From assembly GCA_963847625.1 (NCBI GenBank), contig CAWKAR010000039.1:45244-109243 (forward strand): a DNA stretch of 64,000 nucleotides, in the 5' to 3' direction. Both the position numbers and the translations under genes were made by a program. The notes below the pieces were generated by a model. It searched no databases, was not told the origin of the DNA, and was given only the letters and a program-made list of their open reading frames with translations. Numbering within the stretch: position 1 is the first letter of the stretch; each line of letters begins with the position of its first letter. The stretch comes from a candidate division FCPU426 bacterium (GTDB taxonomy: Bacteria; Oederibacteriota; Muellerivitia; Muellerivitales; Muellerivitaceae). Shown piece after piece: positions 1 to 18,975 of the stretch.

Positions 1-3000
1 TGGATCCCAGCACCGTGACAATCACGGGCGGGAACGGGACCGATAACAACAGCGGCGATGGAGGTGCGGGCGGTGCGGCTACCGCGACCATCGGTTCCTT
101 GAACCTGGCGGGGGATCTGGGCGGTCCTTCCACTTATCAAGTCACCGGCGGCAACGGCGGTAATGCTACCGGAGGGATTGGAAACGGCGGCGCGGGCGGC
201 GACGGAATTTTTACTTCTTCCGGAGCGGTGTCGATTGATTCCAGCGACTTCAGTGCGGGCGGGGGCGGGGGAGGTTCCAGCTTTACCAGCATCGGCGGGA
301 ACGGCGGAAACGCGAACGTTTCCATCGGGACTGATTTAAATATAACGGCATCCAAAAATTTGTCCATGTTTGCCGTGGTAGGTGGTTTGGGTGGAGTGAA
401 TAACGGTACCGGAATTGGCGGGAACGGTGGTACGGCTTCCCTGCCGGCCGGCGGAGCGGTGTCGGTTGATTCCAGTATTGTCGGCGCGGTCGGCGGAAGC
501 GCGGTTTCTGGTAACGGGTCCGCGGGCACGACGGAGGGTTCGGGCGGGAACGCCTCGGCTTCCCTGGGAAGCTTGACGGTGACTTCCGATAATTACAACC
601 TGAATGGCATTGGAACCCCCTCCGAGTTTTTAGTCATGGGCGGAGCGGGTGGAAACGAAAATGACTTAGGGAGTGGCGGAACCGGCGGATCGGCGGACTT
701 GTCCACTTCTAACGCCGTGTCGGTGGACTCCAGCTCGGTGAGCGTGGGTGGGGGGGTAGGGGGTGCTAGTTATGGAGGCAACGGTGGAAACGGCGGGAAC
801 GCCTCGGTTTCCATAGGTTCCGATTTGATCGAAACAGCAAGCAACGTTTCCTCCGGCCTTAACGTGACCGGCGGGAATTCCGGAAACAACATTTGGAATT
901 ATGGCCATGGCACGAGCGGCACGGCTGGTTCGGCGGCCTTATCGGTCTCGGGCGCGGTGTCCGTGGATTCCAGCTCCGTGAGCGTCACGGGGGGCAACGC
1001 GGGTTATGGTTACGGATTAGGGGGCACGACCGGGGGTGCGGGTGGAAACGCCTCGGCCTCTTTGGGAAGCTTGAAGATAACCTCCGATAATTACAACCTG
1101 AATGGGATTGGAAACACTTCCAACTTTAACGTGTCGGGGGGGACGGGTGGAACCGATTATTACCAAGGCGCCGGGGGGGACGGGGGTTCGGCGGCATTGT
1201 CGGTCGCTGGCGCGGTGTCGGTTGATTCAAGCGATGTCAACGTGGACGGGGGAAAGGGTGGTTATAGTTATTACGCCAACGGTGGAAACGGGGGAGACGC
1301 TACCGTTTTCGTCGGGTCCAATTTGACCGTAACGGGGGTAAACAATACCTCCAACTTCACAGTGGTGGGTGGGGCGAGTGCCGGCAATTACCAGGGAAAC
1401 AGCGGGGTGGGCGGAGACGCGGCCTTGTCGGTCGTGGACGCGGTATCGGTGGATTCCAGCAATGTCAGCGTGGGTGGCGGTACGGGCATGATTTCCGCTT
1501 ACGGCAATGGGGATAACGGCGGCAATGTGTCAGTTTCCATTGGGTCTAACCTGAGTGTGAACAACTCCTCCAACTTGAACGTGACCGGTGGAAGCGCGGA
1601 AATCGACTATCCTTGGATTAACAATGGATCCACGGGAGCGGGTGGTTCGGGCGGTTCGGCGGCCCTGTCGGCCGTGGGGGCTGTGCCGGTGGATTCCAGC
1701 GGCGTCACCGTGGCCGGTGGAACGGGAGCTGATAGCTACGGAGGCAACGGAGGAAACGGGGGGAGTGCCTCGGTTTCCATAGGTTCCGGTTTGACCGTAA
1801 CAGCAAGCAACGATTCCTCCAGCCTGTATGTGGCCGGTGGAAACGGCGGAAACAACTATGATTGGTATGGTGTTGGAACCGGCGGCACGGGAGGTTCATC
1901 GAGTTTGTCTGTCGCTGGCGCGGTATCAGTGGATTCCAGTGACGTCAATGTGGCGGGTGGCTACACGGGCTATGGTTATGGATCAGGCTCAAGCGTGACC
2001 GAAGGGGCGGGCGGGAACGCCTCGGCTTCCCTGGGTGGTTTGACGCTAACTTCCGATAATTACAACCAGAATGGCACCGGAACCACTTCAAACTTTACCG
2101 TGGTGGGTAGGGCGGGTGGGGACGATTATGGCAATGGCAACGGCGGGAACGGCGGTTCGGCCTCCTTATCCGTGTCTGATGCGGTGTCGGTGGATTCCAG
2201 TTCGGTAAGCGTGGCCGGCGGGACAGGCGGTTATAGCGCGGGCGCTAATGGTGGAAACGGTGGAAATGCCAGCGTGTCCATCGGAACAAGTTTGACCCTG
2301 ATGAATGCCTCCAACTTGGTTTTGAGCGGTGGAGCGGGCGGAAACAATAATACGGGCGGTAACGGCGGCAATGGCGGTGATGCTTCGCTGACGGCCTCGG
2401 GTTTAACCCTGGGAGCGGGAACCATCTTCAGTATGACTGGAGGAGCGGGAGGAAGCGGAGATAGTAACGATGGGTCCATGGGGAACGCTAACGCCGTGGT
2501 CGGCACTCTGAATGGGGCGGGTTATATCACCATGGGCGGTTCAACTGCGAATCTTCAGGTTAAACAAGGTTATTTCAGCGGTGTGATCGCGGGGAATGAA
2601 AGCCTAGACGTGACGGGGGGCGGGGCACTGACCCTGACGGGCTCCAACACCTATTCAGGCGGCACGACGATGGATTCAGGCACCTTGAACCTGGGGAACA
2701 ACAACGCCCTGGGCACGGGGAACCTCACCCTGGAAGACGGCACGACCTTGCAGGCCGGGGTGAATAACCTGGCTGTCACGAATGCCGTATCCCTCAGTGG
2801 AACCGATACTTACGATTCCAATAGCGATAATTCGTCCCTGTCGGGGGTCATTAGCGGCACCGGTTCCTTGACGAAAATCAACGCGGGAGCTTTGACCCTG
2901 GCCAGCGCCAACACTTACAGCGGGGGGACGACGGTGGTTTCAGGCGCCTTGAACCTGGGGAACAACAACGCACTGGGCACGGGGAACCTGGCGCTGGAAA

Positions 3001-4754
3001 ACGGCGCGACCTTGCAGGCCGGGGTGAATAACTTGGCGGTCACGAATGGGGTGTCCCTCAACGGGGCCGATACCTTGGATAAAAACGGTTATGATTCATC
3101 CCTTTCGGGCGTCCTCAGCGGTACGGGAAGCCTGGATGTGATAGGAGGCGGGACAGTCACTCTTGCGGGATCCAATACTTACTCGGGCGGCACAAACCTT
3201 AATGGGGGTACTTTGGTAGTGGCCAATAGTAATGCCTTGGGCACAGGCTCTGTAGTGAACGGCGGTATCTTGAGCATCAACGGCCCCATGACGGTTAATA
3301 TCGGGGGCAATTACACCCAATCCTCCTCGGGAATTCTGCAATTGGGGATGGGGGGAACAGCAGCGGGAACCTGGGATGTGTTGAATGTTTCAGGCGCGGC
3401 CAGCCTGAATGGGACCCTGTGGCTGGTTTCGGACAACGGGTTCCACTTGCATATACATGGGACCGAGGACTTCGAAATCCTGTCGGCAGGAAGCGTGGGC
3501 GCAACGTTCACCACGTTTTCCGATATGATTACGGGCGATTCGGTTTCGTTGGTTTACCAGTCGAAGGATGTGCTCTTGAAGGTGACCGGCCCGAGCTTCC
3601 AGTCCTTGGGTGGGACGCCCAACGAAGCCGCTGTCGGCGGCGTGTTGGATTACCTGAACGCCCATTCGCCCGACCAGTCCTTGATCCATTATTTGAATAC
3701 CCAATCCGATGCCGCGTTGCTGGGGATTTACGACAAAATCTCGCCGGCGGACTTGACGCCACTGTACCGGATCAGTTTCAGCTCCGCCCAGGTTGAGGCG
3801 GGAATGGTGGAACAAAGGCTTGACCAGTTGTTCGGCAATTCCGGGGATGGTTCCAAGAATATTTCCTGGAACGGGGAAGAGCTCCTGTTCGCGGGCAGGC
3901 ACTCGGCCAGGAGAGAAGCGAATATGGCCAAGGACCTCCAACCCGAGCACTGGGGAGTCTTTGCCGACGGAATCGGCGACTTCGGAACCGTCTCAGCCGA
4001 CTCGAACGCCCCGGGGTACCAATATTCCACCGGCGGAATGGTCGCCGGGATGGATTACCGGTTCTCGAAGGATTTGGTGGGAGGGTTGATGCTGGGTTAC
4101 ACCCAGTCGGGCAGCAGCCAATCCACCGGAACGGTGAACGTGACGGGCGGGCAATTGGGCCTCTACGGCGGGTGGAAACAAGGCCCGCTTCACGTGGAAG
4201 CGCTGGCCGCGGGAGGGATCAACAGTTACACCACCCAACGCGACTCCTTGGGAGGCACGGCGTCGGGAAGCACACAGGGCCAACAACTTTCTGGCCAGAT
4301 CGGCGCCGGATACGATTTGACCGTTGGGAATGCGAAGGTGGTGCCTTTCGTATCGGGCCAGTACACCCGAGTGGATGTCAACGGCTTCAACGAATTCGGC
4401 TCCCAGACGCCGTTGAATTACGCGGCGCAGGGGGAAGGGTGCTTGACCAGCGACCTGGGAGCGGGGGTAAGCCGCGACTGGTTCGCGGGAAACGTCGTTT
4501 TGGCGCCTAGCGTGAGCGCGGCCTGGGAGCATGTGTTCCAGGGCAACTTGGACAGCCTGGACGCGACCCTGGGAAGCGGCGGGAGCTTCACCGTGGACGG
4601 CCCGGCGACGGGGACCGACGCGTTGGTCTTGGCCGCAGGGTTGGACGCGCAATTCACCAAAGGGTTCAAGGCCTATGTCTCGTGCCAAGGCAGGGTGGGA
4701 TTGACGAACTTCTCCGGGCAAAACTTGACAGGCGGCGTGAACTTCGGGTTTTAA
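1..4754 (+). CDS. Giant autotransporter-type adhesin, 5'-truncated by the window edge. It has Gly-rich ~80-aa periodic repeats, autotransporter-associated beta-strand (PATR) repeats, and a C-terminal beta-barrel translocator domain
   Basis: ORF 15..4754 is open to the window start. There are at least 9 repeats of AVSVDSSxVxVxGG...GGNGGNASVSIGS with ~240-nt period from about nt 230 to 2300. Three copies of LTLTGSNTYSGGTT..LNLGNNNALGTGNL (PATR-like) lie at ~2630-3250. The C-terminal ~380 aa shows alternating beta-strand character and ends NFGF (aromatic terminal residue, OMP beta-signal). Confidence 0.8.
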   Translation, partial: DPSTVTITGGNGTDNNSGDGGAGGAATATIGSLNLAGDLGGPSTYQVTGGNGGNATGGIGNGGAGGDGIFTSSGAVSIDSSDFSAGGGGGGSSFTSIGGNGGNANVSIGTDLNITASKNLSMFAVVGGLGGVNNGTGIGGNGGTASLPAGGAVSVDSSIVGAVGGSAVSGNGSAGTTEGSGGNASASLGSLTVTSDNYNLNGIGTPSEFLVMGGAGGNENDLGSGGTGGSADLSTSNAVSVDSSSVSVGGGVGGASYGGNGGNGGNASVSIGSDLIETASNVSSGLNVTGGNSGNNIWNYGHGTSGTAGSAALSVSGAVSVDSSSVSVTGGNAGYGYGLGGTTGGAGGNASASLGSLKITSDNYNLNGIGNTSNFNVSGGTGGTDYYQGAGGDGGSAALSVAGAVSVDSSDVNVDGGKGGYSYYANGGNGGDATVFVGSNLTVTGVNNTSNFTVVGGASAGNYQGNSGVGGDAALSVVDAVSVDSSNVSVGGGTGMISAYGNGDNGGNVSVSIGSNLSVNNSSNLNVTGGSAEIDYPWINNGSTGAGGSGGSAALSAVGAVPVDSSGVTVAGGTGADSYGGNGGNGGSASVSIGSGLTVTASNDSSSLYVAGGNGGNNYDWYGVGTGGTGGSSSLSVAGAVSVDSSDVNVAGGYTGYGYGSGSSVTEGAGGNASASLGGLTLTSDNYNQNGTGTTSNFTVVGRAGGDDYGNGNGGNGGSASLSVSDAVSVDSSSVSVAGGTGGYSAGANGGNGGNASVSIGTSLTLMNASNLVLSGGAGGNNNTGGNGGNGGDASLTASGLTLGAGTIFSMTGGAGGSGDSNDGSMGNANAVVGTLNGAGYITMGGSTANLQVKQGYFSGVIAGNESLDVTGGGALTLTGSNTYSGGTTMDSGTLNLGNNNALGTGNLTLEDGTTLQAGVNNLAVTNAVSLSGTDTYDSNSDNSSLSGVISGTGSLTKINAGALTLASANTYSGGTTVVSGALNLGNNNALGTGNLALENGATLQAGVNNLAVTNGVSLNGADTLDKNGYDSSLSGVLSGTGSLDVIGGGTVTLAGSNTYSGGTNLNGGTLVVANSNALGTGSVVNGGILSINGPMTVNIGGNYTQSSSGILQLGMGGTAAGTWDVLNVSGAASLNGTLWLVSDNGFHLHIHGTEDFEILSAGSVGATFTTFSDMITGDSVSLVYQSKDVLLKVTGPSFQSLGGTPNEAAVGGVLDYLNAHSPDQSLIHYLNTQSDAALLGIYDKISPADLTPLYRISFSSAQVEAGMVEQRLDQLFGNSGDGSKNISWNGEELLFAGRHSARREANMAKDLQPEHWGVFADGIGDFGTVSADSNAPGYQYSTGGMVAGMDYRFSKDLVGGLMLGYTQSGSSQSTGTVNVTGGQLGLYGGWKQGPLHVEALAAGGINSYTTQRDSLGGTASGSTQGQQLSGQIGAGYDLTVGNAKVVPFVSGQYTRVDVNGFNEFGSQTPLNYAAQGEGCLTSDLGAGVSRDWFAGNVVLAPSVSAAWEHVFQGNLDSLDATLGSGGSFTVDGPATGTDALVLAAGLDAQFTKGFKAYVSCQGRVGLTNFSGQNLTGGVNFGF

Positions 4755-4778
4755 GAAGAAAAATTTAGCTTTAAAAAC

Positions 4779-4840
4779 AAGGGGCCTCGCCCTGAAGAGA
4801 CCGACGGGTCTATTTCAGGGCTTGGCCCTTATTTTTTTGA
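4779..4840 (+). terminator. Rho-independent terminator after the autotransporter gene
   Basis: Nested inverted repeats gccctgaa...ttcagggc (with inner gacc/ggtc) followed by ttattttttt. Confidence 0.55.
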
Positions 4841-5039
4841 TACCTGAATTTTCGCCTAATCGACACCCCCGGTATTCCCCAAGAATACCCCCCCACTAAC
4901 CAAAATAATATCTAGCCACGGATGCATGGGATTCATGAGATTTTAAAAACACAAATAATTAAAGCCTTTTTCTTAGGCCTATCTGAGTGCATCCCCTGAA
5001 TCCGTGGTTAAGAGTCGGTTTTTTGGAAAACGGAGGCCG

Positions 5040-5153
5040 TTAACCCGGTGAACGCTGCTGGCACCCAGTACGCGGGGCCGGGAACCCAGTATAGGGTGCC
5101 GTAAACCCGGTATTTGGAGAGATAACCCAGTAAACGGAGACGGTAACCCAGAT
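5040..5153. repeat. Array of 6 direct repeats of a 9-bp motif (G/T)AACCC(A/G)GTA at regular 20-21 bp spacing (iteron-like or regulator-binding array)
   Basis: taacccggtg@5041, gcacccagta@5061, ggaacccagt@5081, gtaaacccgg@5101, gataacccag@5121, cggtaaccca@5141. Successive copies are 20-21 bp apart, i.e. two helical turns. Confidence 0.6.
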
Positions 5154-5276
5154 AGCATGAATGGGCCAGCGACCTTCGTAGTAGGCTTTGATCAATAGCA
5201 GCTGATCAAAATAACGCGGGTTGCTCCGTCCTCCACACCCCTTCCGTCCTGCTCTGAGTTCTCCATCTCGAAGAAC

Positions 5277-5537
5277 GTGTTTTTCCCGTCAAACGGGGCG
5301 GTATCGATTTATGTTTCCTATTGCCAGTACCCGGGTGCCTTTTCCTTAGGAATCTATAATTCGGCCGGGGAACACATCAAAACCCTGGATGAGCGGTATT
5401 TAGAAGCCCCGATTGCCGCTTCTTACCTTTGGGACGGGAAGAACAAATTTGGGGACCCCTGCGCGAGCGGAGTATATCTCATTTCCTTGATGGAACCCTA
5501 TGATCACAAGTTGAAAAGGGTCATCCTCATCAAGTAA
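5277..5537 (+). pseudogene. Orphan C-terminal sorting domain (Por-secretion-tail / FlgD-Ig-like CTD) with no upstream catalytic region; probable gene remnant
   Basis: 86-aa ORF ...YLWDGKNKFGDPCASGVYLISLMEPYDHKLKRVILIK resembles the C-terminal ~90 aa of the hydrolase at 39375..41810 (...NGLYYVVLDRLNGGHESLQIMKLLIFR). No coding sequence precedes it for >500 bp. Confidence 0.35.
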
Positions 5538-6015
5538 CTGGTTTCAAATTATTTTGTTTCACCCGATCCCACCCCCTAAAAACAAAGTTAGGAAGTTAGC
5601 CCCAACTGTTTTTTGACAGTTGGGACAACCAAGTCTCGCCATTCGACGCCGGATATTTTTAACTTTTGATCCGGCACATCTAAACCATGCCTCTCGACTT
5701 GTAGCTTCGAGGCAAGAGCTTGTAGGCTCATGGCAGGTACAGTTAGAAATTAACTGCAAAACACCAATTTAAGTGGCATCCCATTTGGGTAGGTGCATTT
5801 ATTCCTCCTTCATGTATATAATGAGCAAGGTTTTACTTTGGCCGGGTGAAAAACCAAGTCTTTTATCCGCCATAGATAGGTTGCCTATCCGAACGAATCC
5901 TATGGAAACTTTTAGATGGCATTTTTACGGGTCGGCATGAAAGCGCTTGAAAGCTTGAAACCGGAATGAAAACCGCTTTCGTGGAAAAATTTTCCTTTTA
6001 GGAACAAGGAGTCTT

Positions 6016-7044
6016 ATGTCCACCAATACCATTTATGAAGTCGCCCAAAAGGCGGGCGTTTCCATTTCCACTGTTTCACGGGTCTTGAACAAAAATCCGA
6101 ATGTCCTGGAAGAGACCCGAAGAAAGGTTTTGAAAGCCATCGAGGAACTCCACTTCAGGCCCAACCCCATTGCGCGCGGCTTGGTGATCAAGCAGACGAA
6201 CCTGATCGAGGTTTTCTTTTCCTGGCCGGGCTACCGGTTCAACCTGGAAAGCGCCTGGTACGTGGAACTCCTCAACGGCGTCAACCAAGTTGTCCAGGAA
6301 AACCAGTTCGGCCTTTTGATCAACACCATCGCGGGGGTTTTCGACCCGCAAGAGGTCTATAAGCGGGTTTTCAATAACGTCGTGGATGGGATCCTCATGG
6401 TTTCGCCTTATCTGGAGGAAAAGGATTTGGTTGAGATCCTGAGCGATCGGGTGCCCATCGTGCTCGTCGGTTACCGGACCTCGGACCCGAAACTGGATTT
6501 CGTGGACAGCGACAATGTCCAGGCTGTAGGCCAGGTGGTCGACCACCTGGCGGGATTAAAGCACAAGAAAATCGCCATCATCACGGGGCAGGTGGATAAC
6601 TCGCGCAACGCCACAGACCGCTTGGAAGGTTTCCGCTCCGCCATGGATAAACACGGATTCAAGATCCCGCCGGAATACATCGTGGGCGGGGATTTTCTTT
6701 TGGAATCCGGCGAGGAAGCCATGAAAAAACTTTTGGCGCTCCGCGACAGGCCGACGGCGGTCTTCGCGTCCAACGATCTCATGGCATTGGGGGCCATCAA
6801 GGCTCTGGAAAAAGCCAAATTGAAAGTGGGGAAGGATATCGCCTTGGTTGGCTTTGATGATATTCCCGAGGCTTCCACCCCGCCCCATTCCCTCACCACC
6901 ATTCATCAGGATTACCGGTCTATCAGCGTGGAAGCCACCCGAATCCTGTTGCAGAAGATCCGGGAACCGGAACAATGGAAGACACGCCAATTGCTGGTCC
7001 CGGCCCAACTGGTGGTACGGCAATCCTGCGGATCAAAGAAATAA
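6016..7044 (+). CDS. LacI-family transcriptional regulator
   Basis: N-terminal HTH TIYEVAQKAGVSISTVSRVLNKNPNV followed by a periplasmic-binding-protein-like sugar-binding core (342 aa). Confidence 0.85.
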   Translation: MSTNTIYEVAQKAGVSISTVSRVLNKNPNVLEETRRKVLKAIEELHFRPNPIARGLVIKQTNLIEVFFSWPGYRFNLESAWYVELLNGVNQVVQENQFGLLINTIAGVFDPQEVYKRVFNNVVDGILMVSPYLEEKDLVEILSDRVPIVLVGYRTSDPKLDFVDSDNVQAVGQVVDHLAGLKHKKIAIITGQVDNSRNATDRLEGFRSAMDKHGFKIPPEYIVGGDFLLESGEEAMKKLLALRDRPTAVFASNDLMALGAIKALEKAKLKVGKDIALVGFDDIPEASTPPHSLTTIHQDYRSISVEATRILLQKIREPEQWKTRQLLVPAQLVVRQSCGSKK

Positions 7045-7955: not shown

Positions 7956-8581
7956 TCAAAAATCCAGTTCTGATTAATTCAATGTTTCAATTCTTAGCAA
8001 GTTATTTTGCCCTGAAATCCAATCGAATCTCTTGATTATAAGGGTTTCTGGTTTAACCTTCCTAAGATATAAGTTCTAATCAATCCTTAACCTGCGATTA
8101 GATTTGTCCTTAATTTTTATTCCTGAAAAGAAGCAATTGCGAATCAATTTTTTCTTCGTGGACGTATATCGGCTTGGAAAAGTTCATTTAAGAAACAACA
8201 AGGTTAATGCCGTCAACGACTAATGATCGGTTTTGAAACTGATGGTTGCCTGCTACCAGAATATATCTAATCAGACTGTACGTCCTAGAGACATTACTTT
8301 TCAGCCATTTTACGGACAGGACGATCTGAAAAGAAGATTTGTCAATCTGGAAGGAAACGGGAAATATCCCAAATCAGTTAGTCGAATTGAAAACGGAAAG
8401 TATAATTAAGCTATGAATAGCCTGCCGTCATGCCCGAAAAAGTTTATTCGAAAAGTTTCATGAAAAATTTTCTCCATATTTCGTTAAGGTAATAAGCCAT
8501 GGAAGTCTTTTTGAAGAATTTATTAATTCGTGAGATCTGATTTATAAAATAAAAAAGAGATTACGAAAATAAAAGAGTCTT

Positions 8582-9751
8582 ATGAATCAGATGCATTCAG
8601 GCCGAATTGAGGTTTTGGATTCCTTGCGCGGCGTTGCAGCTATGCAGGTGGTATTCAATCATTTTTTGATCGTGTTTCCTCTTTTTTTTGAAGCGACCCT
8701 CCACCTAGCGTCAAATCAACCTTTGATGGCGAAGTTGATGGTTTATACGCCGCTCCATATCCTATGGGCGGGGCATGAGGCTGTTATCTTCTTTTTCACT
8801 TTGAGCGGATTTGTTTTGTCCTTACCTTATGTGAATAGGAATCCACTTTTTTACCGACCCTACCTGATTAGGAGATTTTGCCGAATTTATATTCCTTTTT
8901 TCACTCTTATTTCTCTCTCCCTTATTTTATATAAGAGGGGTCTAGGTTTTTTTGCGATTCCAGGTGTCAGCTGTTGGACTAACAGTTTTTTTTCTAAAAC
9001 CATCACTTGGCGGGAAATGCTGAAAATCTATACCGGGTTCGACGATATCTACACCTATAACTTGGCTCCCACTGTTTGGAGTCTAAACCACGAGATGCGC
9101 ATCTCAATTGTTTTTCCCTTCTTGGCTAACATGGTGGTGAAATTAAATTGGAGAGAAAATTTGGGAATGGGTTTTTTGTTAGCAGCTCTAGGAGGGGGAT
9201 TGATCAATGAGAAAATATTATCCGCTGGAGAATTGAATAGAACATTTTTCTACACCTCTTTTTTTATCTTTGGGGCCCTTCTGGCGAAACATCGGGATTG
9301 GGTTTTAGGGGCCATTGGGAAATACAATGGCGGCCTAAGAACATTGTTCTTAGCCTCTGCTTTAATCTTGTATAACATTCGCTGGTCGGGATTGGTGGAA
9401 GAAAAATCATCTTTTTCCCCTGTTGGTCATGAAGTTTTCTGCGATTTGTCAGTAGGACTGGCGTCACTTTATTTCATCGGTGCGTCTTTGGGATGGAAGC
9501 TAAATAAAAAGAATTTTGTTCAAGGAACCTTTTTGTGGATTGGGAAAATTTCCTTCAGCCTTTATTTGATCCATCCGTTGATATTATTCATGAGTATTTA
9601 TTATTTTAGGCATTTCTTGCCAATAATCATTAGCGACTTCCTGGGTTTGTCCTTTGCAATATTTGTGGCTTGGCTTTTCTATCGTTGGATAGAATGTCCT
9701 TCCACACAATTGGGTAAAAAACTTTCCAAACATTCCATTTTCACGGGCTAG
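8582..9751 (+). CDS. Acyltransferase family 3 (OafA/NolL-like) integral membrane O-acyltransferase
   Basis: 389 aa, about 10 predicted TM helices, N-terminal LDSLRGVAAMQVVFNHF typical of PF01757. The gene sits in a low-GC island (7956-10545). Confidence 0.65.
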   Translation: MNQMHSGRIEVLDSLRGVAAMQVVFNHFLIVFPLFFEATLHLASNQPLMAKLMVYTPLHILWAGHEAVIFFFTLSGFVLSLPYVNRNPLFYRPYLIRRFCRIYIPFFTLISLSLILYKRGLGFFAIPGVSCWTNSFFSKTITWREMLKIYTGFDDIYTYNLAPTVWSLNHEMRISIVFPFLANMVVKLNWRENLGMGFLLAALGGGLINEKILSAGELNRTFFYTSFFIFGALLAKHRDWVLGAIGKYNGGLRTLFLASALILYNIRWSGLVEEKSSFSPVGHEVFCDLSVGLASLYFIGASLGWKLNKKNFVQGTFLWIGKISFSLYLIHPLILFMSIYYFRHFLPIIISDFLGLSFAIFVAWLFYRWIECPSTQLGKKLSKHSIFTG

Positions 9752-9820
9752 AAAGAAATTCCTAAAACTAAAACCCAATTCATTTATGGGAACCTCTAAA
9801 AATTCATTTAAGCCCTCGCC

Positions 9821-9912
9821 CCTTGAGGGAGAGGGTAGGGTGAGGGGTAAAAAACCTCGCTATTTCCACCCTCATCCCATCCTTCTCCCCTCTAGGGAGA
9901 AGGGGAACGGCA
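9821..9912. repeat. GC-rich imperfect palindromic element (REP/MITE-like) in an AT-rich intergenic region
   Basis: ccctcgccccttgagggagagggtagggtgagggg ... accctcatcccatccttctcccctctagggagaagggg forms two related purine/pyrimidine-skewed arms capable of extensive hairpin pairing. Confidence 0.4.
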
Positions 9913-10545
9913 ATTTATAGAGGTACCCTTATTCAGAAGCAGTTGAAATGCTTAAGGAGGTGAGTGTTCTTTGAATATTCTTGAAAATCTGGATTGTAAT
10001 GATGATAGATGTTTGCCGGCGGGAGAGGCGCAGAAATATTCGCGAGAGAATCTATTGGCATCATGCCCTGGTGGTGTGGCCCATTTCCCAGGCCGAACGC
10101 ATTTCTTTGTGCCATTCTGGACTCACTGTCTCCAGTGATGAACAAGATATGACTCTATGACCGGGTTCCTTTTTAAAACAAGTTTTAGAGCATTCGAGTA
10201 ACCCGATTTTAAAAATAAGGCTAGCATTTATCCTATCTTTCAGACTATGGACAGACCAAATCATTGTTCCATATGCACAATTAGTTGTGGGTAGCACCCC
10301 TAGGTATGCAGTTTGTAGCTTAAAAGGGGTATGGACCCCTGAATAGGTAGAGCATTAACCCCAAAACCCCGGTTGCCCTGCCTGAAATAACGGTTAAAAT
10401 AATTTTGTGCAATAGGACGGGAACCCAGTTGCAAGAAAATTAAACAAATAACATAGGTTTCGATAAATATTTTTACGGAAGATTTACCCGTTTAACCCAG
10501 CTTTTATTGATACAGGAATCTGAAAGGTTGACCCGAAAAACTTGA

Positions 10546-13500
10546 ATGGAAACCAAATTCGTTAAACCCGTACGCTACGGCGACATCATCGAAATCGACA
10601 TCCACTCCCTCGCCTTCGGGGGGGATTCAGTAGGCCGTTACCGTGATTTTGCCATATTTGTCCCGGGTGGGCTCCCTGGCGAGAGGTTGGCCGTAAAGAT
10701 CACCCGGGTCAAGGACCATTTCGCTACGGGTGAGATTGTCAACTTCCTCAAGCGTTCCCCGGACCGCATTGTCCCAGGTTGTCCCGTATTCGAGGAATGC
10801 GGTGGGTGTCAATGGCAGCACCTACACTATTCCCGACAGCTTCAAGCCAAGCGCCAGTTCGTCGTGGATGCTTTTCAAAGAATCGGGCATCTTTCCAATG
10901 TAGTGGTACAGCCCAGTCTGCCTTCGCCCAATCCATACGCTTACCGCAACAAAGCCCTGCCGGTTCTTTCGATGCGGGAGGGTCATTATGTTTCCGGGAT
11001 CTACGAACCCCGTTCCCACCACTTAGTGCCCTACCAGACATGCCCCATTCAGGGAGACGCCGTCAATGACCTGATCCAAAAAGTCCTGAATAAGATCGAT
11101 CGTTCCGGTTTGACGCCCTACCAGGAAAAAAAACACATAGGTTTTTTAAGGCATTTGGCTGTCCGTCAGGGATTGAAAACGGGCGAGATGATCTTGTCCT
11201 TTATCACCCGCGCAGAGGTGCCTGAGGAACGGCTTCAAAAACCCGCCTTGGTACTGGAATCCCTGGACCATGTCCTGCCACGTCTTGCGGCGGAGCTTAT
11301 GGAGGAGATTCCCGGCCTGGTCGGCGTCCTACAAAACATCAATCCTTCCCGCACCAACGCTGTATTCGGCTCCACCACGCGTCTCCTCGTGGGGCGGGAC
11401 CACTATTTCGAGGTTATCGATGACCTCCGGCTGAGAGTCTCTCTGATGTCCTTCCTGCAGGTCAACACTCTTCAGGCGGATATTCTTCACACCGTCGTCA
11501 GGGAGGCATTGGGAGAACCGGCTCACAAGAAAAAATGGGGGATCCTGCTGGATCTTTTCTCCGGCCTCGGCACCCTGGCCTTGGCTGTTTCCCAAAAGGT
11601 TGATTATGTGGTGGGCATCGAGGAATCAGCCCCCGCCGTGGAAGACGCCAAATTCAACGCGACGTTGAACCAACGGGACAACATCGATTTTCTGGAAGGC
11701 GACGTGGGCCGTGTTCTCATGGGTCTCAAGGAAAAAGGATTAACGCAACTGGACGCTGCGATCATGGACCCTCCCCGCAAAGGAATCCTGCCGGAAGTCC
11801 TGGCACGGTTGACGGCTTTCCACCCGGAAAGATTGGTTTATGTATCCTGTGACCCTTCCACGCTGGCTCGGGATCTTTCCCTTTTAACTAAGCACGGCTA
11901 CTCGGCTGATTGGGCCCAGCCTATCGACATGTTTCCCCAGACCTATCACGTTGAAACGGTGGTGAGACTTACCCGGCAAAAACCTCTCTCCCTTGAGACT
12001 ATGACCGGCCTTTCGGAACAAGCGCTGGAACCTTTCCGTCTTCCCAAAACGGAACCTGTAGCCCTCAATATAAAGGGTTCCTTCGAGGCGCTCTGGAAGG
12101 GGTTGGCCCTGGTATTTCAATCCATGGTGGAACTTCTTGCCAAAGGAAAGGTTAAAGTTCGTCTGTTCTTATCGGTTATGCCCTTAGGATTTAAAAAAGT
12201 TTTAAGTGCTGCTAACTTTATTTACCTCCATTCCCTTAAAACGATCCTTTGGGTATTAAAAATAATCCCAATCACATTCCGATTATTCGCTGGTTTGTTT
12301 TGGCACATGAAAAACTCGTACAATAAATTAGTTTCGGAGAAAAAACTCACCCAGGACTACGATGACTTTTCCCCGACTCCAACCGAAATCGCGAGGATGG
12401 AAGAAACCATTACAAAACCGACCCCGATTCTTTCAGAATGGGTTGAAACTCCATTCCGGGAAGAGTGGGAAGAAGAAACCGCGTTACAACCGCCAGAGGG
12501 CCCAGAGGAACCTCTTTCATCTATTCCGGCTTCCGGGGTGGTTTTATCGTCCTCTTCCATCCAAGAATTAGAGAAAAATGAAATTTCAGAGGGAGAGCTT
12601 TCCTCCGTTCCAGAGACCGGACAGGAACCGCTCCCGGAATGGCCTACTCCGCCACCTTTTCCTAAGCCTCTGACGGCACCGCTCTGGGAAAAATGGAAAT
12701 GGCTTTATAGATCCTTTTTTAAGAGGTCCTTATTCCGTTGGACGGTTTTAGCGGTTCTTTTTTTAGGTATCGGCGCTTATTGGGCCAAAGCAACCCTTTC
12801 ACCCTCCCGGCCCAAAAATTGGCTCCAGGCTCCCACTGTTTCCCAGATGATCCCGGACGCAATCGCCGTCATGCCCACCCGAACCTTCCTTCGCTACGAA
12901 ATGGTGCCCTTTGAGGTGAGGGTGAACCCGAAGAACCAGGCTTATTTCTCGGATATACACGCCTCCGTGGAGATTTTCTGTGACGGTGAACCTGTCAATA
13001 TGGTAGACGGCAGGTCCAAGTTGTATTTAAAAAAAGACCAGGCTGGAAAGAAACTCCTGGGTAATTGGCCGATTCCTTATAATCCCAAGGCTGGCACTTA
13101 TATTGCCGAGATAGCCATTACTTCGCCCCAGTGGCAAACCCCCCATACCTTCGAATCCGCCTTCACCATCGCGCCATTGAAACCGCATGGGCTTTATCCG
13201 GGTTATGCCGCCCTTACCATGGAGGGGGGGAAGCAATTAGTCAACGGGGCGATTCCTCCCCTGGACGGGAACGGATCTTCCAATACCTCCAATGCCATCG
13301 ACTGGGCGAAATTTATCGGTGCCAATCTGTTCTGCGATTTAATGGGGCAGACTTCCATTTGGGACCACCTCGTCAAGGCGGATTTTCCATTCAACCGGCT
13401 TGAAATTGAAACAGGCCACCGATACGCCCGCGCCGCACACGCCAAAGGGTTGAAGTTCGCCAGTTACATGACCACCTTCAAGGTGGAAGGCGACGCCTGG

Positions 13501-14691
13501 CAACAGGCCCCTTACGAATTCTCGCTTGGATACGACCCAGACAGTGATGAGGTGATCCAGACCCGCTTCATTTCGCTTGAGGACAAAAAGCGCCGCCAGG
13601 ATGTCATCGATTTTTTAAGAAAAATGGACCAGGAACCCCTTGTCGATATCATCGGGATGGATTACGTAAGGACCGGTTTCGCGGGTTATGAAATGGTGGA
13701 TGAGTTCGTCAAGGATTTGAACGTGCCGGGGCCGATGGATTTTTGGACCATGTCCAAGCAGGACCGCATCCATTGGCTGGCACGCACCGTGGAATTGAAG
13801 GAAAACCCGCAAGTGGTGGCTCTTTTCGAGTGGTGGAGGGCCCACAAGGTGGCGTTAACCCTGAAAGGCATTCTTGATGAGGCGAAGGTTTCCAAACCCG
13901 TCTTCACCTTCACCCTCGGTTGGGAAATGGGACATCAACACGGCCAAGATCCCGCCATGTTCATCGACGCAGGCGTGGCTTTTAACCACATCATGCTTTA
14001 TGAAGGAACCCGGGAGCACATTGAGGTCATGAAACGGCATTGGCCCGTTTATTTATCCCGGGAAAACGGGATGTACGCCATGGGAGAAATGGTTGACTTC
14101 AACTGGGTCCAGAGGACCACCGATCCTCCGGCACCGTTGGAACTTTTTAACCGGCAAAATGAGACTTTCCAAAATTGGTTTCCCGAAAATGCTTCCCTGG
14201 GCATGTTTTGGCACGACCTTTACCGATTGATTTGGGGAATCCGCGGCCCTTACACCAGCATGGAATGGGCCATATCAGGCGGAAAAGCTTTCTCCGCCTT
14301 GCAACACACCGAGGGGCTTTCACCCATCGACGTAACATTGACCGCCCCGCGGGAAGCTCCCGTTGGAGTGCCGGTTCCCTTGAGTGTGGAAATTCGTAAC
14401 CATTCCCCGGAAGATTTGAAAGGGGTGATACTCCACCAACTGGATGCTTCCAAGAATTACCTGGACGAGTTGGCCACCCTGGGGCCTTTTGACCTTCCAG
14501 CTGGAAATATGGTGAAGGTGAAGAGCCTTTTCCTGAATATGCCCAAGGAAATCCATCCCGAGAGAGACAACCGTTACATGGCGGCGGTTATGGTGGAAAG
14601 ACAGGGAGAACCGCTGAGGGTTTTCGATTTCGCCTATATAAAAGGGTTGCCGTTGGGAACTGTTGTTCGGAAGTTGGACACGCCCCAGTGA
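10546..14691 (+). CDS. Fusion ORF. N-terminal 23S rRNA (uracil-5)-methyltransferase RlmD/RumA (TRAM, 4Fe-4S, SAM-MTase), followed by TM segments, an acidic/Pro-rich linker, a second TM, and a ~650-aa extracytoplasmic TIM-barrel-like putative glycoside-hydrolase-like domain
   Basis: Residues 1-480 carry CPVFEECGGCQWQH, DLFSGLGTLALAV, MDPPRKG and VYVSCDPSTLARDL. There is no stop codon through an AT-rich hydrophobic stretch (12100-12360), then RWTVLAVLFLGIGAYWA, then DIIGMDYVRTGFAGYE-type TIM-barrel motifs. Continuous 1381-aa frame. Confidence 0.6.
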   Translation: METKFVKPVRYGDIIEIDIHSLAFGGDSVGRYRDFAIFVPGGLPGERLAVKITRVKDHFATGEIVNFLKRSPDRIVPGCPVFEECGGCQWQHLHYSRQLQAKRQFVVDAFQRIGHLSNVVVQPSLPSPNPYAYRNKALPVLSMREGHYVSGIYEPRSHHLVPYQTCPIQGDAVNDLIQKVLNKIDRSGLTPYQEKKHIGFLRHLAVRQGLKTGEMILSFITRAEVPEERLQKPALVLESLDHVLPRLAAELMEEIPGLVGVLQNINPSRTNAVFGSTTRLLVGRDHYFEVIDDLRLRVSLMSFLQVNTLQADILHTVVREALGEPAHKKKWGILLDLFSGLGTLALAVSQKVDYVVGIEESAPAVEDAKFNATLNQRDNIDFLEGDVGRVLMGLKEKGLTQLDAAIMDPPRKGILPEVLARLTAFHPERLVYVSCDPSTLARDLSLLTKHGYSADWAQPIDMFPQTYHVETVVRLTRQKPLSLETMTGLSEQALEPFRLPKTEPVALNIKGSFEALWKGLALVFQSMVELLAKGKVKVRLFLSVMPLGFKKVLSAANFIYLHSLKTILWVLKIIPITFRLFAGLFWHMKNSYNKLVSEKKLTQDYDDFSPTPTEIARMEETITKPTPILSEWVETPFREEWEEETALQPPEGPEEPLSSIPASGVVLSSSSIQELEKNEISEGELSSVPETGQEPLPEWPTPPPFPKPLTAPLWEKWKWLYRSFFKRSLFRWTVLAVLFLGIGAYWAKATLSPSRPKNWLQAPTVSQMIPDAIAVMPTRTFLRYEMVPFEVRVNPKNQAYFSDIHASVEIFCDGEPVNMVDGRSKLYLKKDQAGKKLLGNWPIPYNPKAGTYIAEIAITSPQWQTPHTFESAFTIAPLKPHGLYPGYAALTMEGGKQLVNGAIPPLDGNGSSNTSNAIDWAKFIGANLFCDLMGQTSIWDHLVKADFPFNRLEIETGHRYARAAHAKGLKFASYMTTFKVEGDAWQQAPYEFSLGYDPDSDEVIQTRFISLEDKKRRQDVIDFLRKMDQEPLVDIIGMDYVRTGFAGYEMVDEFVKDLNVPGPMDFWTMSKQDRIHWLARTVELKENPQVVALFEWWRAHKVALTLKGILDEAKVSKPVFTFTLGWEMGHQHGQDPAMFIDAGVAFNHIMLYEGTREHIEVMKRHWPVYLSRENGMYAMGEMVDFNWVQRTTDPPAPLELFNRQNETFQNWFPENASLGMFWHDLYRLIWGIRGPYTSMEWAISGGKAFSALQHTEGLSPIDVTLTAPREAPVGVPVPLSVEIRNHSPEDLKGVILHQLDASKNYLDELATLGPFDLPAGNMVKVKSLFLNMPKEIHPERDNRYMAAVMVERQGEPLRVFDFAYIKGLPLGTVVRKLDTPQ

Positions 14692-15873: not shown

Positions 15874-18800
15874 TTGAAATTTAGCTTTAAAATTTTTATA
15901 ACGTCCTTTTTCTTAAGCCTTTTTTCTTTGGCCACCGGAGCGGGTTTCCTTTTGGCTGATCCAATGGAAAACGTGGGACCCGACCAGAGTCTTTACCAAA
16001 GGGTGAAGAAGCTAGCGGATTTAGGCCTGTTAGACCCCCAGGACCAAGCGGTCCTGGATCAGGGGAAAATAGTCACCCGCCTTGAGTTGGCTTTCTATAC
16101 CGAGAAAGCCGCCGCCAGGATTGAGGCGCCTCAATTGGCATTGCCGAGTCCTACTCCTGAAGTTGTCGCACCGGCTCCGACGGAAGCGCCATTGCAAATG
16201 CCTCCTATTATTTCTGCTCCAGAATTGCCTGCTCCAGCACAACCGGCAACGGCGTTACCCTTGCCTGAAAACACCCCTGTTTCCGCTCAGCCGGCTTTAG
16301 AACTTCCAGCCCCGTCATTGCCCCCGCCGGAAAATACACCAGTTCCACCTTCGGTATTACCGGCACCCTTGCCTGAAAACACCCCGGTCTCCGCACAGCC
16401 GGCTTTAGAGCTTCCAGCACCAGCATTGCCCCCGCCGGAAAATACCCCGGCTCCGCCTCCGGCTTTACCGGCACCAGCGCCACCTTTGCCCGAAAACACT
16501 CCTGTCCCCGCCCCACCGGCTTTAGAGCTTCCAGCTCCTTCATTGCCCCCGCCGGGAAATACCCCGGTTCCGCCTCCGGCTTTACCCGAGCCGGCATTAC
16601 CTTTGCCGGAAAGCACTCCGGTTCCAGCTCTTCCAACACCTTCAACTCCTTCTCCCGTTGTTACTCCTGTTACCACGCCCATAGTCACTTCTGTTCCCAC
16701 ACCGGCTCCCATACTCCCGGAAGCCACCGGTGCCTTGAGAAATGAAATCCAAGATCTGCTGAAACAACTTCACGCGGAGGCGGTTTTTCTTCGCTCGCGT
16801 TTAAGTCTAGATGATCCCCGCATTAAAGCCCAGGAAGACGAGTTGGATAATCTCAAAAAAGTACAAGATGAAGTGGATACCACCTGGAAAAAGGCCGACA
16901 AGTCGGCGGGCATCCCCAATTTCAACACCAACATCAATACCCGATTCGAAAACATCAATGTTTCCGGAAGCCTTGCCACCGAGAGTGTCTCAAAGGCCTT
17001 GGAAGAAATCTGGTGCGGGATGTACTCGGACCTGGGGGGCAAAGGGGCTCTCTCCCTTGGGGTGGGCGGGATCTTGCCTTATGACAACGCCTCTGCCAAC
17101 TATGACTTGTGGGGTGTGTACGGCACAGGACCCGTATCCCTTTATATCGGCAACCCCAGCTGCACTTTGGACCTGTATGGAGACTTGGGCAAGTGGGACA
17201 CCACCTTTGCGGTTGAAGCCTACCAACCCGACACTACTTACGGCGATTTCAGCCGAGGTTACGCCAATAATTCTCTTAAAAGGTTCGAGAATCCTTGGAA
17301 CATTAAGAGCTTCAACGACGATAAGAACGCAAAGAACTGGGACGATTTCATGAGTAACATCAGCTACGTTCCAAGCTATTCCCCGACGGCCGGCAATGTG
17401 CAATCCACCAGCGACCGGGTTATTGATGGTATTTATGCGGTAGGGAAAAATGTGCCTTGGCTAGCCCCGGGAGGACGCATGTGGTTTCTGGCGGGCCGGA
17501 TGGGTGAAACCACAACCCAAAGCCTTCGCTGGGAGGAGGGCGCCAAAATCGACCAGCCTTGGGCCCACAATCTTATTCGGACCGCTATTTCCACCGAGTG
17601 GGTGAACGACAATTTCGGCGTAAGCAACCTGCCCATGACACCCCAGCTAGATATGAAGGATTACTCGGCCGACATCCATTTGAACCTGACCCCCGTCTTA
17701 TTCGATATCGAAGGCGGGTTTTCGCAATTCTACACCGGCAGCGTTTATCCCGGTCCTTCCTATATTCAATCGGGCCTTCTTCAGCCTGATTCCGATGTCA
17801 TTCAGGCGGGCGCGGGCCAAGCCTCCCTGGCTTTTTATCCTCTCACTTTTTACTACTTTGCTATCAGCGAGAATTACGCAGACTTCATGAGCAAAGTCAC
17901 CATGAGCGGGTTCAATTTCTTCCATCACGGGCTTTATTTCAATCCCAGCGATTTCCAAGATGTTTATGGCGCCATTGGGGAAGTAGATAACCTTCAATCC
18001 GACCGGTACGGTTGGAGGGCCAACTTGGGATGGGACGGCCGGGAACAGGATTGGATGAAGAACTGGCCTAGTTTCCTGGATACCTTTATCATCAACTTTG
18101 ACTTGTCCGAAAAGAAAGAATATGTCGCCGAGCAGGGGCAAGAGGGTTGTTTCATGGTGGAACCCACCCAAATGCTAAGCTTTTACTATCCGGACGATGA
18201 GGGTTTGTGGGGTTTGGACCTGTGGGGAAATTACGCCCCCAACGTGAATCCTTTAAGACAGACTTACATCAACAATATTGAACAGCAACGCAACGATGGG
18301 GACATCGTCAACGACGACGTGCGGTACCAGTTTAGGATGACCAGCGAGAGGCTTCCCCTAATTATGCCTATGTATGTTCAAAGTGTAGTGGTGAGCGGTG
18401 GCATCCCCGTTACAACCTATAGTCTAAATCCTGTAACAAATGGACAACCGCCTGCGACTAATAACGGGCATAATATATATGCCAATATCACCGATCTTAA
18501 AACGTACGACTACATAACCTTATCCGCCAAGCTAAAAATGGACAAGTGGTTCGGCTTGAAGACTCCCATGGACGGATTCTTCTTCGTGACCGACAACAAA
18601 GTTTCGGGTGTTGCCTCCAACGCCACCACGGTCCTTCCCACCAGCACTACTATCAACAACATAACACCCACCATCACCGTTAACATCCCCAATCTTTTTG
18701 AACAGTTGGTCTACGATGGATCCATCATGATTAACGCGGTCAAGAATGTGGATTTGATGGGGGACATAGGGGTCGAAACCTGGAAGTCGCAATATACCTA

Positions 18801-18975
18801 CCCCCAGGTGGATTATCGCACTAACGATTATGGACTAGGGCTTGCCTACGACATTCCTTGGGGCGGGGCCAAGTTGGAATTCCGCTATAAGTACCTTGAA
18901 TTCCACGACAATTACGTTCCCGGGAACAATTATTCCGGAAACCAGTATTTCTGCAAAGTTAAGTTTTTGTTTTAA
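15874..18975 (+). CDS. Outer-membrane protein paralog 1 (OmpM/Slp-like): signal peptide, one SLH-like motif, Pro-rich tandem-repeat linker, coiled coil, C-terminal beta-barrel
   Basis: TTG start with AGGAG RBS. Signal peptide. YQRVKKLADLGLLDP...IVTRLELAFYTEKAA is SLH-like. 3.5 copies of a ~36-aa Pro-rich unit. Heptad-like EIQDLLKQLHAEAVFLRSRL...LDNLKKVQDEV. About 650 aa beta-rich region ending KVKFLF. Confidence 0.65.
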   Translation: MKFSFKIFITSFFLSLFSLATGAGFLLADPMENVGPDQSLYQRVKKLADLGLLDPQDQAVLDQGKIVTRLELAFYTEKAAARIEAPQLALPSPTPEVVAPAPTEAPLQMPPIISAPELPAPAQPATALPLPENTPVSAQPALELPAPSLPPPENTPVPPSVLPAPLPENTPVSAQPALELPAPALPPPENTPAPPPALPAPAPPLPENTPVPAPPALELPAPSLPPPGNTPVPPPALPEPALPLPESTPVPALPTPSTPSPVVTPVTTPIVTSVPTPAPILPEATGALRNEIQDLLKQLHAEAVFLRSRLSLDDPRIKAQEDELDNLKKVQDEVDTTWKKADKSAGIPNFNTNINTRFENINVSGSLATESVSKALEEIWCGMYSDLGGKGALSLGVGGILPYDNASANYDLWGVYGTGPVSLYIGNPSCTLDLYGDLGKWDTTFAVEAYQPDTTYGDFSRGYANNSLKRFENPWNIKSFNDDKNAKNWDDFMSNISYVPSYSPTAGNVQSTSDRVIDGIYAVGKNVPWLAPGGRMWFLAGRMGETTTQSLRWEEGAKIDQPWAHNLIRTAISTEWVNDNFGVSNLPMTPQLDMKDYSADIHLNLTPVLFDIEGGFSQFYTGSVYPGPSYIQSGLLQPDSDVIQAGAGQASLAFYPLTFYYFAISENYADFMSKVTMSGFNFFHHGLYFNPSDFQDVYGAIGEVDNLQSDRYGWRANLGWDGREQDWMKNWPSFLDTFIINFDLSEKKEYVAEQGQEGCFMVEPTQMLSFYYPDDEGLWGLDLWGNYAPNVNPLRQTYINNIEQQRNDGDIVNDDVRYQFRMTSERLPLIMPMYVQSVVVSGGIPVTTYSLNPVTNGQPPATNNGHNIYANITDLKTYDYITLSAKLKMDKWFGLKTPMDGFFFVTDNKVSGVASNATTVLPTSTTINNITPTITVNIPNLFEQLVYDGSIMINAVKNVDLMGDIGVETWKSQYTYPQVDYRTNDYGLGLAYDIPWGGAKLEFRYKYLEFHDNYVPGNNYSGNQYFCKVKFLF
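16252..16650 (+). repeat. Intragenic tandem repeat (~108-nt unit, ~3.5 copies) encoding the Pro-rich linker LPENTPVSAQPALELPAPSLPPPENTPVPPxxLPAP
   Basis: Near-identical nucleotide units are visible at 16258, 16375, 16490 and a partial copy at 16600. Confidence 0.8.

Follow-up and report, generated by a model that had tools for sequence, protein, structure and literature searches.

What is the function of a phased array of short direct repeats in a non-coding stretch of a bacterial chromosome? The question is raised by the 64,000-nucleotide stretch of DNA analysed here (hereafter the window), positions 45,244 to 109,243 of contig CAWKAR010000039.1 from a candidate division FCPU426 bacterium. 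Reading of the sequence finds at 5042-5153 of its plus strand six same-strand copies of a word with the consensus AACCCRGTA. Our best explanation, to which we give a probability of roughly 0.45, is that the array is a binding platform that offers its sites on one face of the DNA to a predicted lineage-specific DNA-binding protein, and that the window holds a short, partly decayed orphan copy of such a platform. The six copies are as follows.

5042, plus strand, copy 1, AACCCGGTG, one mismatch to the consensus
5062, plus strand, copy 2, CACCCAGTA, one mismatch
5083, plus strand, copy 3, AACCCAGTA, exact
5104, plus strand, copy 4, AACCCGGTA, exact
5124, plus strand, copy 5, AACCCAGTA, exact
5145, plus strand, copy 6, AACCCAGAT, two mismatches

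The start-to-start distances between the copies are 20, 21, 21, 20 and 21 bp, each unit of the 20-21 bp period being made of a 9-bp core and a spacer of 11-12 bp. The base before the core is G or T in five of the six copies, and the spacers diverge, with a GGAG/GGGG block weakly common to them. The array is real and its period is far beyond chance. Tandem Repeats Finder called it independently (5063-5151, period 21, 4.3 copies, 71% matches, score 66), and the six direct repeats that the initial annotation had claimed are thus confirmed. The exact 9-mer occurs five times in the window against 0.90 expected, with three of the five inside the array; none of 100 shuffles reached five, and when up to one mismatch is allowed the array is the sole cluster in the 64 kb. 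The periodicity of 20-21 bp in that annotation also stands, although its second copy was one base off and its spacings read 21, 20, 21, 20 and 21, a trivial difference, and the geometry that it proposed, sites on one DNA face two helical turns apart, is borne out. Because the alternation of 20 and 21 bp disrupts the reading frame, and the open reading frames (ORFs) across the array have no protein-family match, the array is non-coding. A CRISPR array was considered and rejected in view of the 9-bp core, the 11-12 bp spacers, the 20-21 bp period and the lack of cas-like domains among the annotated ORFs of the window. The core of the window array has mismatches to the consensus in 6 of 54 cells, compared with 22 of 54 in the first nine spacer positions (Fisher p = 8e-4, an optimistic value because the core was delimited after the sequence had been inspected).

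The array has relatives elsewhere. As defined here, the family of arrays with an ACCCRGTA core comprises the window array, those at three loci (L025, L037 and L073) of an FCPU426 metagenome-assembled genome (MAG), MFD01231.bin.1.41, and those at two other loci, L190 and L203; in all of them same-strand cores are found at about whole helical turns, and the core is far better conserved than the spacer. The FCPU426 MAG carries arrays of about 10, 17, at least 34 and at least 41 cores at L037 (two arrays), L073 and L025, which are built of the units AACCCAGTA-C (10 bp), AACCCAGTA-TTGGAGGCCCC (20 bp) and AACCCAGTA-TTTGGAAAACCCTC (23 bp), plus variants. The window unit at 5104 (AACCCGGTATTTGGAGAGAT, that is, AACCCGGTA-TTTGGAGAGAT) resembles FCPU426 units, one beginning with AACCCAGTATTTGGAAAAC and the other being AACCCAGTATTGGAGGCCCC. 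Furthermore, positions 5022-5041, directly before the array, consist in this order of TTTGGAAAAC, which is the first 10 nt of the FCPU426 'b' spacer, of GGAGGCC, the 7-nt 'c' spacer block, and of GTT. A box farther upstream (4921-4952) aligns with L025 1697-1731 at a local alignment score of 33, whereas shuffled sequences gave 16.8 +/- 2.0 and none of 300 scored as well. Since spacer blocks and the upstream box are both shared, the tie between the window array and the FCPU426 arrays does not depend on the searched 9-mer. No homology was found between the 3' flank of the window array and L025 or L037.

L190, a metagenome contig, has 13 copies of (G/A)ACCCGGTAAA at 21-22 bp, a few of them at 10, 20, 31 or 32 bp, with unrelated spacers, and a GH31 gene and a SASA esterase gene flank this array; the contig carries a ACCCGGTA-core array and, elsewhere, a clean copy of the palindromic element seen in the window. 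L203 has 11 units with the same core, flanked by arrays of another word, GGTGACAAA, and is linked to the window only through the core of L190. In these two arrays a 10-mer is near-invariant: mismatches fall on the core in 2 of 130 cells and on the spacer in 49 of 117 at L190 (p = 1e-16), and in 3 of 110 and 44 of 99, respectively, at L203 (p = 5e-14). If the duplicated units were decaying neutrally, mismatches should fall on core and spacer alike, so the core appears to be under constraint. Across seven arrays, neighbouring cores are 10, 19-23 or 31-33 bp apart, with one distance of 15 bp; these values match one, two or three turns of B-DNA to about 0.2 turn, and thus all cores face the same side, which points to constraint on the arrays at the DNA level.

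We infer from this arrangement that ACCCRGTA would be recognised by a sequence-specific DNA-binding protein whose gene lies elsewhere in the genome, and that each unit of 20-21 bp would offer this protein one core, always on the same helical face, at one molecule per about two turns. Because the cores share a face, neighbouring protein molecules could touch each other and load side by side in a cooperative manner. The repeat family is small; apart from this organism it occurs in the FCPU426 MAG and in one or more other metagenomic lineages, where the arrays have about 10 to at least 41 cores and lie at several chromosomal places. The window copy is most likely orphan or decaying, since it is short and partly degenerate and lies in a rearranged, non-conserved stretch beside a palindrome and a truncated gene, and it may have little or no local regulatory target. 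An unlikely extension of this proposal, drawn from a handful of loci, is that FCPU426-related bacteria possess a chromosomal system of long one-face arrays of ACCCRGTA, a conserved word of 8-10 bp, and of sister-word arrays, coated by dedicated proteins with nucleoid-organising, roadblock or decoy roles, of which the window would hold a small decaying member. In the decoy version, the arrays would titrate initiators or transposases of invading elements.

Several points weigh against a binding platform. No candidate binding protein was identified among the genes near the arrays, and in the five contexts seen no conserved gene lies beside them. Only three of the six cores in the window are exact, and the contrast between core and spacer there was set after inspection. 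Phasing inside any one array does not count as independent evidence, because tandem duplication passes on a constant period. The link of L190 and L203 to the window consists of an 8-mer and a co-resident palindrome, not of homology in the array flanks. The array also appears to have no conserved local role, because it was not found in relatives that are syntenic to the right of the LacI-family gene described below. Finally, the FCPU426 arrays contain near-identical higher-order units of 51-53 bp (Tandem Repeats Finder, 93-98% matches) that look like recent expansion by slippage or unequal exchange.

The last point is what would be expected of a neutral or selfish minisatellite relic, which expanded by slippage or unequal exchange and then decayed, the core being kept by chance or by a mutational or gene-conversion bias. 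Such a relic would also fit the window copy itself, which is degenerate, non-syntenic and located in junk DNA, and it agrees with the results of the database scans, because repeats of this kind turned out to be widespread. When two cores 20-21 bp apart were sought in 185,579 species genomes, at least 114 loci were obtained; among the matches listed, most are singletons, multi-copy insertion sequence (IS) elements or unrelated repeats, and clustering of the ORFs neighbouring these listed matches yielded no families other than ubiquitous ones (histidine kinases, response regulators and acyl-CoA ligases). A three-core scan of metagenomes gave 107 loci, mostly perfect minisatellites with unrelated spacers, and the 77 distinct metagenome arrays have no common spacer theme (8 of the 77 distinct spacers are G-rich, approximately the chance number). 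In the viral collection, the real word was found in 2 triple arrays, compared with 5, 5 and 9 for three scrambled 9-mers of unchanged composition. Tandem repeats with units near 20 bp are therefore common background, and a pan-bacterial AACCCAGTA array family was rejected, since scrambled controls match as often or more and the spacers are unrelated. A literature search for the 9-mer matched only primers. However, a minisatellite relic fails to explain the near-invariant 10-mer in random spacers at L190 and L203, and it also fails to explain why unequal spacings of 10, 19-23 and 31-33 bp are held to about whole turns. We thus regard it as a possible but somewhat doubtful explanation.

The scans also brought up repeats of other kinds. 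Contiguous heptamer arrays, (CCCAGTA/CCCAGAA/CCCGGAA)n, were seen at L094 (980-1320), L022 (300-610) and L156 (630-720), hosted by a Desulfobacteraceae MAG, a Bacteroidales MAG and a metagenome contig, and they end a few to about 35 bases 5' of a start codon. They recall the cyanobacterial STRR heptamers. They also resemble the TAACTGA repeats (PMC4679880). Arrays of an Acidobacteriota-type 10-bp repeat, GTAGAACCYN, occur at L103 (190-960) and at L030, L119, L121, L125, L134, L147, L149, L185, L187, L208 and L224; at L103 they form inverted sets around a segment of about 600 bp, and the repeats recur in soil metagenomes. These look like a separate repeat family. Two viral contigs, L257 (8184-8213) and L258 (6886-6916), carry two direct ACCCGGTAAA repeats 20-21 bp apart, located about 20 bp (L257) and about 40 bp (L258) upstream of a phage-gene promoter of the form TTGACA-N17-TATAAT. 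A putative regulator site that uses the same word is plausible here.

The surroundings of the window array bear on its proposed relic status, and are listed here from left to right.

15-4754, autotransporter gene, 1579 aa, with PATR repeats and a beta-domain (Pfam)
4773-4837, plus strand, intrinsic-terminator-like inverted repeat (I1) with 24-nt arms, 79% complementary, followed by a T-run; closes the autotransporter gene
4913-5010, no strand assigned, palindromic element of about 100 nt with arms TAGCCACGGATGCATGGGATTCATGAGAT and an inverted copy, and an AT-rich loop
5022-5041, plus strand, pre-array spacer-like segment, TTTGGAAAACGGAGGCCGTT
5042-5153, plus strand, phased array of six AACCCRGTA copies with a period of 20-21 bp
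5203-5537, plus strand, 3' remnant of a decapitated secreted-protein gene, with a PT-linker tail and a C-terminal domain that is FlgD_ig or like that of the type IX secretion system (T9SS)
6016-7044, LacI-family regulator gene, 480 bp to the right of the remnant

The terminator-like repeat forms the left edge of the non-coding stretch. The array was correctly placed by the initial annotation between the autotransporter terminator and an orphan sorting-domain fragment, which is the FlgD_ig / T9SS-like remnant, and the non-coding gap of about 520 bp also agrees with our measurement of 522 bp between the stop codon of the autotransporter gene (4754) and the GTG at 5277. This GTG is the start of the mechanical ORF of the remnant; the frame is open, and recognisable, back to about 5203 with no start codon. 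The FlgD_ig match has E = 1.3e-4, below the curated cutoff. The closest homologue, P0136, shares 68% identity across 98% of 5203-5537, and another, P0137, was mis-called and is in fact the C-terminal end of a longer ORF with a PT linker in L232. Most homologues in the databases are short called fragments of the same C-terminal domain. From its frame and its homologues we take the gene at 5203-5537 to be decapitated, and the remnant to be the right boundary of a putative rearrangement scar.

The comparison with relatives is consistent with such a scar. Many orthologues of the LacI-family protein share 60-75% identity with it, and for three of them (72-75% identity) seven loci were fetched. To the right of LacI, these relatives keep the order of the window, with a hypothetical protein of about 260 aa, a TRAM/RumA fusion of about 1400 aa, a 256-aa protein and a protein of about 900 aa. 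To the left, they have Inositol_P and HSP20 genes where the window has the autotransporter, the array and the remnant, and neither an ACCCRGTA cluster nor a non-coding array of about 21-bp period was found at their LacI loci. Because the genes on the left side are replaced and the array is missing in these syntenic relatives, positions 1-5900 of the window represent a lineage-specific rearrangement. Downstream of the autotransporter genes with homologous beta-domains (58-62% identity), neither an array nor a palindrome was found; these loci are paralogous and therefore uninformative on the ancestral state. Positions 8000-10000, of low GC content (0.37-0.41), carry a plus-strand Acyl_transf_3 gene (8582-9751) where L225-L229 have a minus-strand gene of about 490 aa, and this segment appears to be a second lineage-specific replacement within the conserved synteny.

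A truncated gene beside the array could also mean that the array is the relic of a transposon end of the IS21, Tn7 or Mu type (DDE transposons), that is, subterminal transposase sites left behind by an insertion and by the deletion that truncated the neighbouring gene. Several direct repeats of 20-25 bp per end are indeed seen in the two IS21 elements of L037 and L073, one of which has a 25-bp unit in 3.5 copies and a 22-bp unit in two copies, and the other inverted 23-bp units in three to four copies; furthermore, the FCPU426 arrays sit among IS21 and TIRYT elements. However, neither IstA nor IstB homologues were found in the window by tblastn, nor a homologue of Y1_Tnp, and no inverted partner array exists in the 64 kb. 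In addition, the 34 to at least 41 sites of the related arrays exceed any transposon end by far. At L037, an IS21 element (IstA 518 aa, IstB 272 aa) lies inside a AACCCAGTA array that has the same orientation on both sides of it, with a 5-bp duplication, CCAAC; because the element sits within the array with a target duplication, this array is an insertion target and not a transposon end. The arrays were thus rejected as IS21 ends, since the inserted element has its own, different end repeats (22-25 bp). At L025, two genes for proteins with Y1_Tnp and a DnaA_C-like helix-turn-helix domain (DnaA_C-HTH) lie downstream of the array, with their own GGGGTCAC repeats directly upstream of them. These proteins are of the TIRYT or TnpA_REP subclass 2.1 class (PMC6006769), and with repeats of their own they were rejected as binders of the 9-mer. 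The related arrays thus do not appear to be parts of the adjacent mobile elements, and we hold an origin as a transposon end to be quite unlikely. The FCPU426 arrays are moreover embedded among arrays of other words: L037 (1900-6700) and L073 (1600-8000) are kilobase mosaics of same-direction arrays with periods of 21-23 bp and at least five words, for example CCCTGCCCGCAGGTG, TTTCCACCGTCCGGTG, CCACCGTCGGCATGG and CGCCTACTGGCAG; the mosaics contain two different IS21 elements, in L073 one nested in the other, and a Phd/PIN toxin-antitoxin pair.

The palindromic element at 4913-5010 has 23-nt arms that are 83% complementary, the second arm lying on the minus strand with three mismatches, and folds as DNA with z = -4.4. 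Each arm (TAGCCACRGATGCATGGGATKCATRRGAT) contains about 2.6 copies of the 9-mer GGATKCATG. The copy on the L190 contig (1976-2090) is a clean hairpin (z = -8.8), and those in L025 (915-1030 and 1611-1731) are interrupted, with an arm split by about 80 nt, and stand as two direct copies on either side of a 102-aa ORF. Three viral matches to the arm have no hairpin and by our estimate are about the chance number; they were discarded. The element looks like a lineage-specific repeat resembling repetitive extragenic palindromic (REP) sequences or miniature inverted-repeat transposable elements (MITEs), separate from the array, and Rfam gave no match for it other than generic long-hairpin miRNA noise on the L190 copy.

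This element also accounts for the signal that would suggest a transcribed repeat RNA, for example one that sequesters an RNA-binding protein as a sponge through ACCCAGUA or through the GGA/GGAG blocks of the spacers. The 441-nt region folds on the plus strand with z = -3.1, GGA or GGAG is present in many spacers, and in the window, L025 and L037 the flanking genes are read in the same sense as the motif. However, the fold signal stems from the palindromic element; for the array alone, z was -2.1 (plus strand) and 0.0 (minus strand), and thus there is no sign of structured RNA at the array. A strong terminator precedes it, no sigma-70-like promoter was found in 4600-6200, and at L190 the array is antisense to its genes and has spacers without GGA. 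Rfam 15 gave no match in the window at the gathering threshold and, under permissive settings, only chance-level matches (E of at least 5) near the array; for L025 and L190, both settings gave nothing but the hairpin noise already mentioned. Spacing by helical turns is, moreover, meaningless for RNA, and a repeat RNA is very unlikely.

In iteron plasmids, direct repeats lie on the same face with a period of 20-21 bp. The initial annotation accordingly saw in the array the hallmark of an iteron array or of a multimeric regulator-binding platform, and named as points to check a plasmid or an integrative element as its location and a Rep/initiator or regulator nearby. The platform remains our best reading, whereas we found no support for the iteron origin. 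In this origin, the array would be made of Rep-bound iterons derived from a plasmid or an integrated element, or would be a handcuffing or incompatibility array. The six 20-21 bp units do have iteron geometry (direct repeats about 17-22 bp long that recur roughly every two turns), and an AT-rich stretch of 40 bp (4936-4975) is located 65-100 bp upstream. This stretch, however, is the loop of the palindrome, which belongs to a repeat family. The window carries LepA, signal peptidase, HemN, HrcA-GrpE-DnaK, Dxr, RseP, SucCD, GcpE and ProS, and with such housekeeping genes spread across it the window is chromosomal DNA and the setting of the array is chromosomal, not that of a plasmid or integrative element; tRNA genes were not found in the window. 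Within about 5 kb of the array, the ORFs encode the autotransporter, the FlgD_ig remnant, the LacI-family protein, a conserved hypothetical protein and an acyltransferase, in addition to small ORFs without a family match. No Rep, Par or mob domains occur among the ORFs neighbouring the array, where the LacI-family protein is the sole regulator, and no integrase was noted within reach of the array, although no search was aimed at integrases. A partition centromere of a plasmid (parC or parS type) was rejected as well, since these neighbouring ORFs have no ParA, ParM, ParB or ParR domains and no operon of the parMR or parAB type lies beside the array. Furthermore, the related arrays lie at several chromosomal loci, where no Rep genes accompany them, and their copy number goes up to at least 41. 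An iteron origin is thus highly improbable.

The LacI-family gene itself offers another candidate for the function of the array. A palindrome at 5936-5983 (CATGAAAGCGCTT ... AACCGCTTTCGTG) lies just 5' of it, in a region that is about 82% conserved in L226-L228, and is probably a LacI autoregulatory operator, to judge from its position and conservation. As this operator-like site is elsewhere and the orthologues have no array upstream, the array was rejected as a LacI operator.

The AACCC(A/C)G motifs that the initial annotation had noted upstream of the RumA-fusion gene are real in number, with five AACCC in 10150-10546 where 0.77 would be expected; about 1% of segments of equal length are as dense. 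However, the gaps between the copies are 157, 8, 57 and 72 bp; the motifs are aperiodic and not conserved in three relatives, and are not meaningful. The gene (10546-14691) encodes a fusion of 1381 aa, of which the N-terminal 480 aa or so are TRAM plus a RumA-type methyltransferase and the other 900 aa or so have no family match; it is conserved in relatives at 1402-1473 aa. Farther right, a tandem repeat of 108-117 bp in about three copies (16257-16622, 83-84% identity) lies within a 1033-aa ORF (15874-18975) that has no Pfam match, and is probably a Pro/Ala-rich coding repeat.

If a protein does coat these arrays, they would represent an unstudied DNA-protein system in a candidate phylum without cultured members, and the invariant core, used as an oligonucleotide bait, would be a direct handle toward that protein. 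For annotation, the array should not be labelled as an origin, a plasmid marker or a LacI operator. It also flags a local rearrangement scar, with a truncated surface-protein gene and a palindromic repeat element.

Among known systems, the iteron arrays of R6K, RK2, pPS10, P1 incC/incA and lambda ori are alike in having direct repeats about two turns apart on one face, which suits monomers bound side by side, and in iteron systems extra arrays serve as titration or handcuffing sites. The present array differs from them in that it is chromosomal, with no adjacent rep gene and no evident DnaA boxes, and in that several arrays per genome, with up to at least 41 copies, are found in relatives. The subterminal repeats of IS21, Tn7 and Mu are likewise short arrays of 20-25 bp direct repeats, and IS21 elements with such repeats occur near or inside the FCPU426 arrays; here, however, there is neither a transposase nor an inverted partner, and the copy number in the relatives is too high. 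BOX, MIRU-VNTR and REP/BIME sequences share with the array its lineage specificity, its intergenic location, its variable copy number and its position beside palindromes and IS insertions, and a relative of the REP-associated Y1 transposases (TIRYT, TnpA_REP subclass 2.1; PMC6006769) adjoins one related array, at L025. In contrast to REP and its RAYT transposase (REPtron), the units are non-palindromic and lack the GTAG-plus-hairpin signature, and only a core of 9-10 bp is kept in random spacer. The TAACTGA heptamer repeats of Beggiatoaceae, Cyanobacteria and Bacteroidetes are intergenic and contiguous, lie just 5' of start codons and have been proposed to act on RNA (PMC4679880). They resemble the array as a short word in the intergenic DNA of patchy lineages for which a binding protein is suspected, whereas in the array the word recurs every 20-21 bp and has no tie to start codons. 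The array is thus of the phased direct-repeat or minisatellite kind and has none of the defining genetic features of iterons or of IS21, Tn7 or Mu ends; we regard it as a probable, decayed member of a family of predicted protein-binding arrays that is specific to the lineage.

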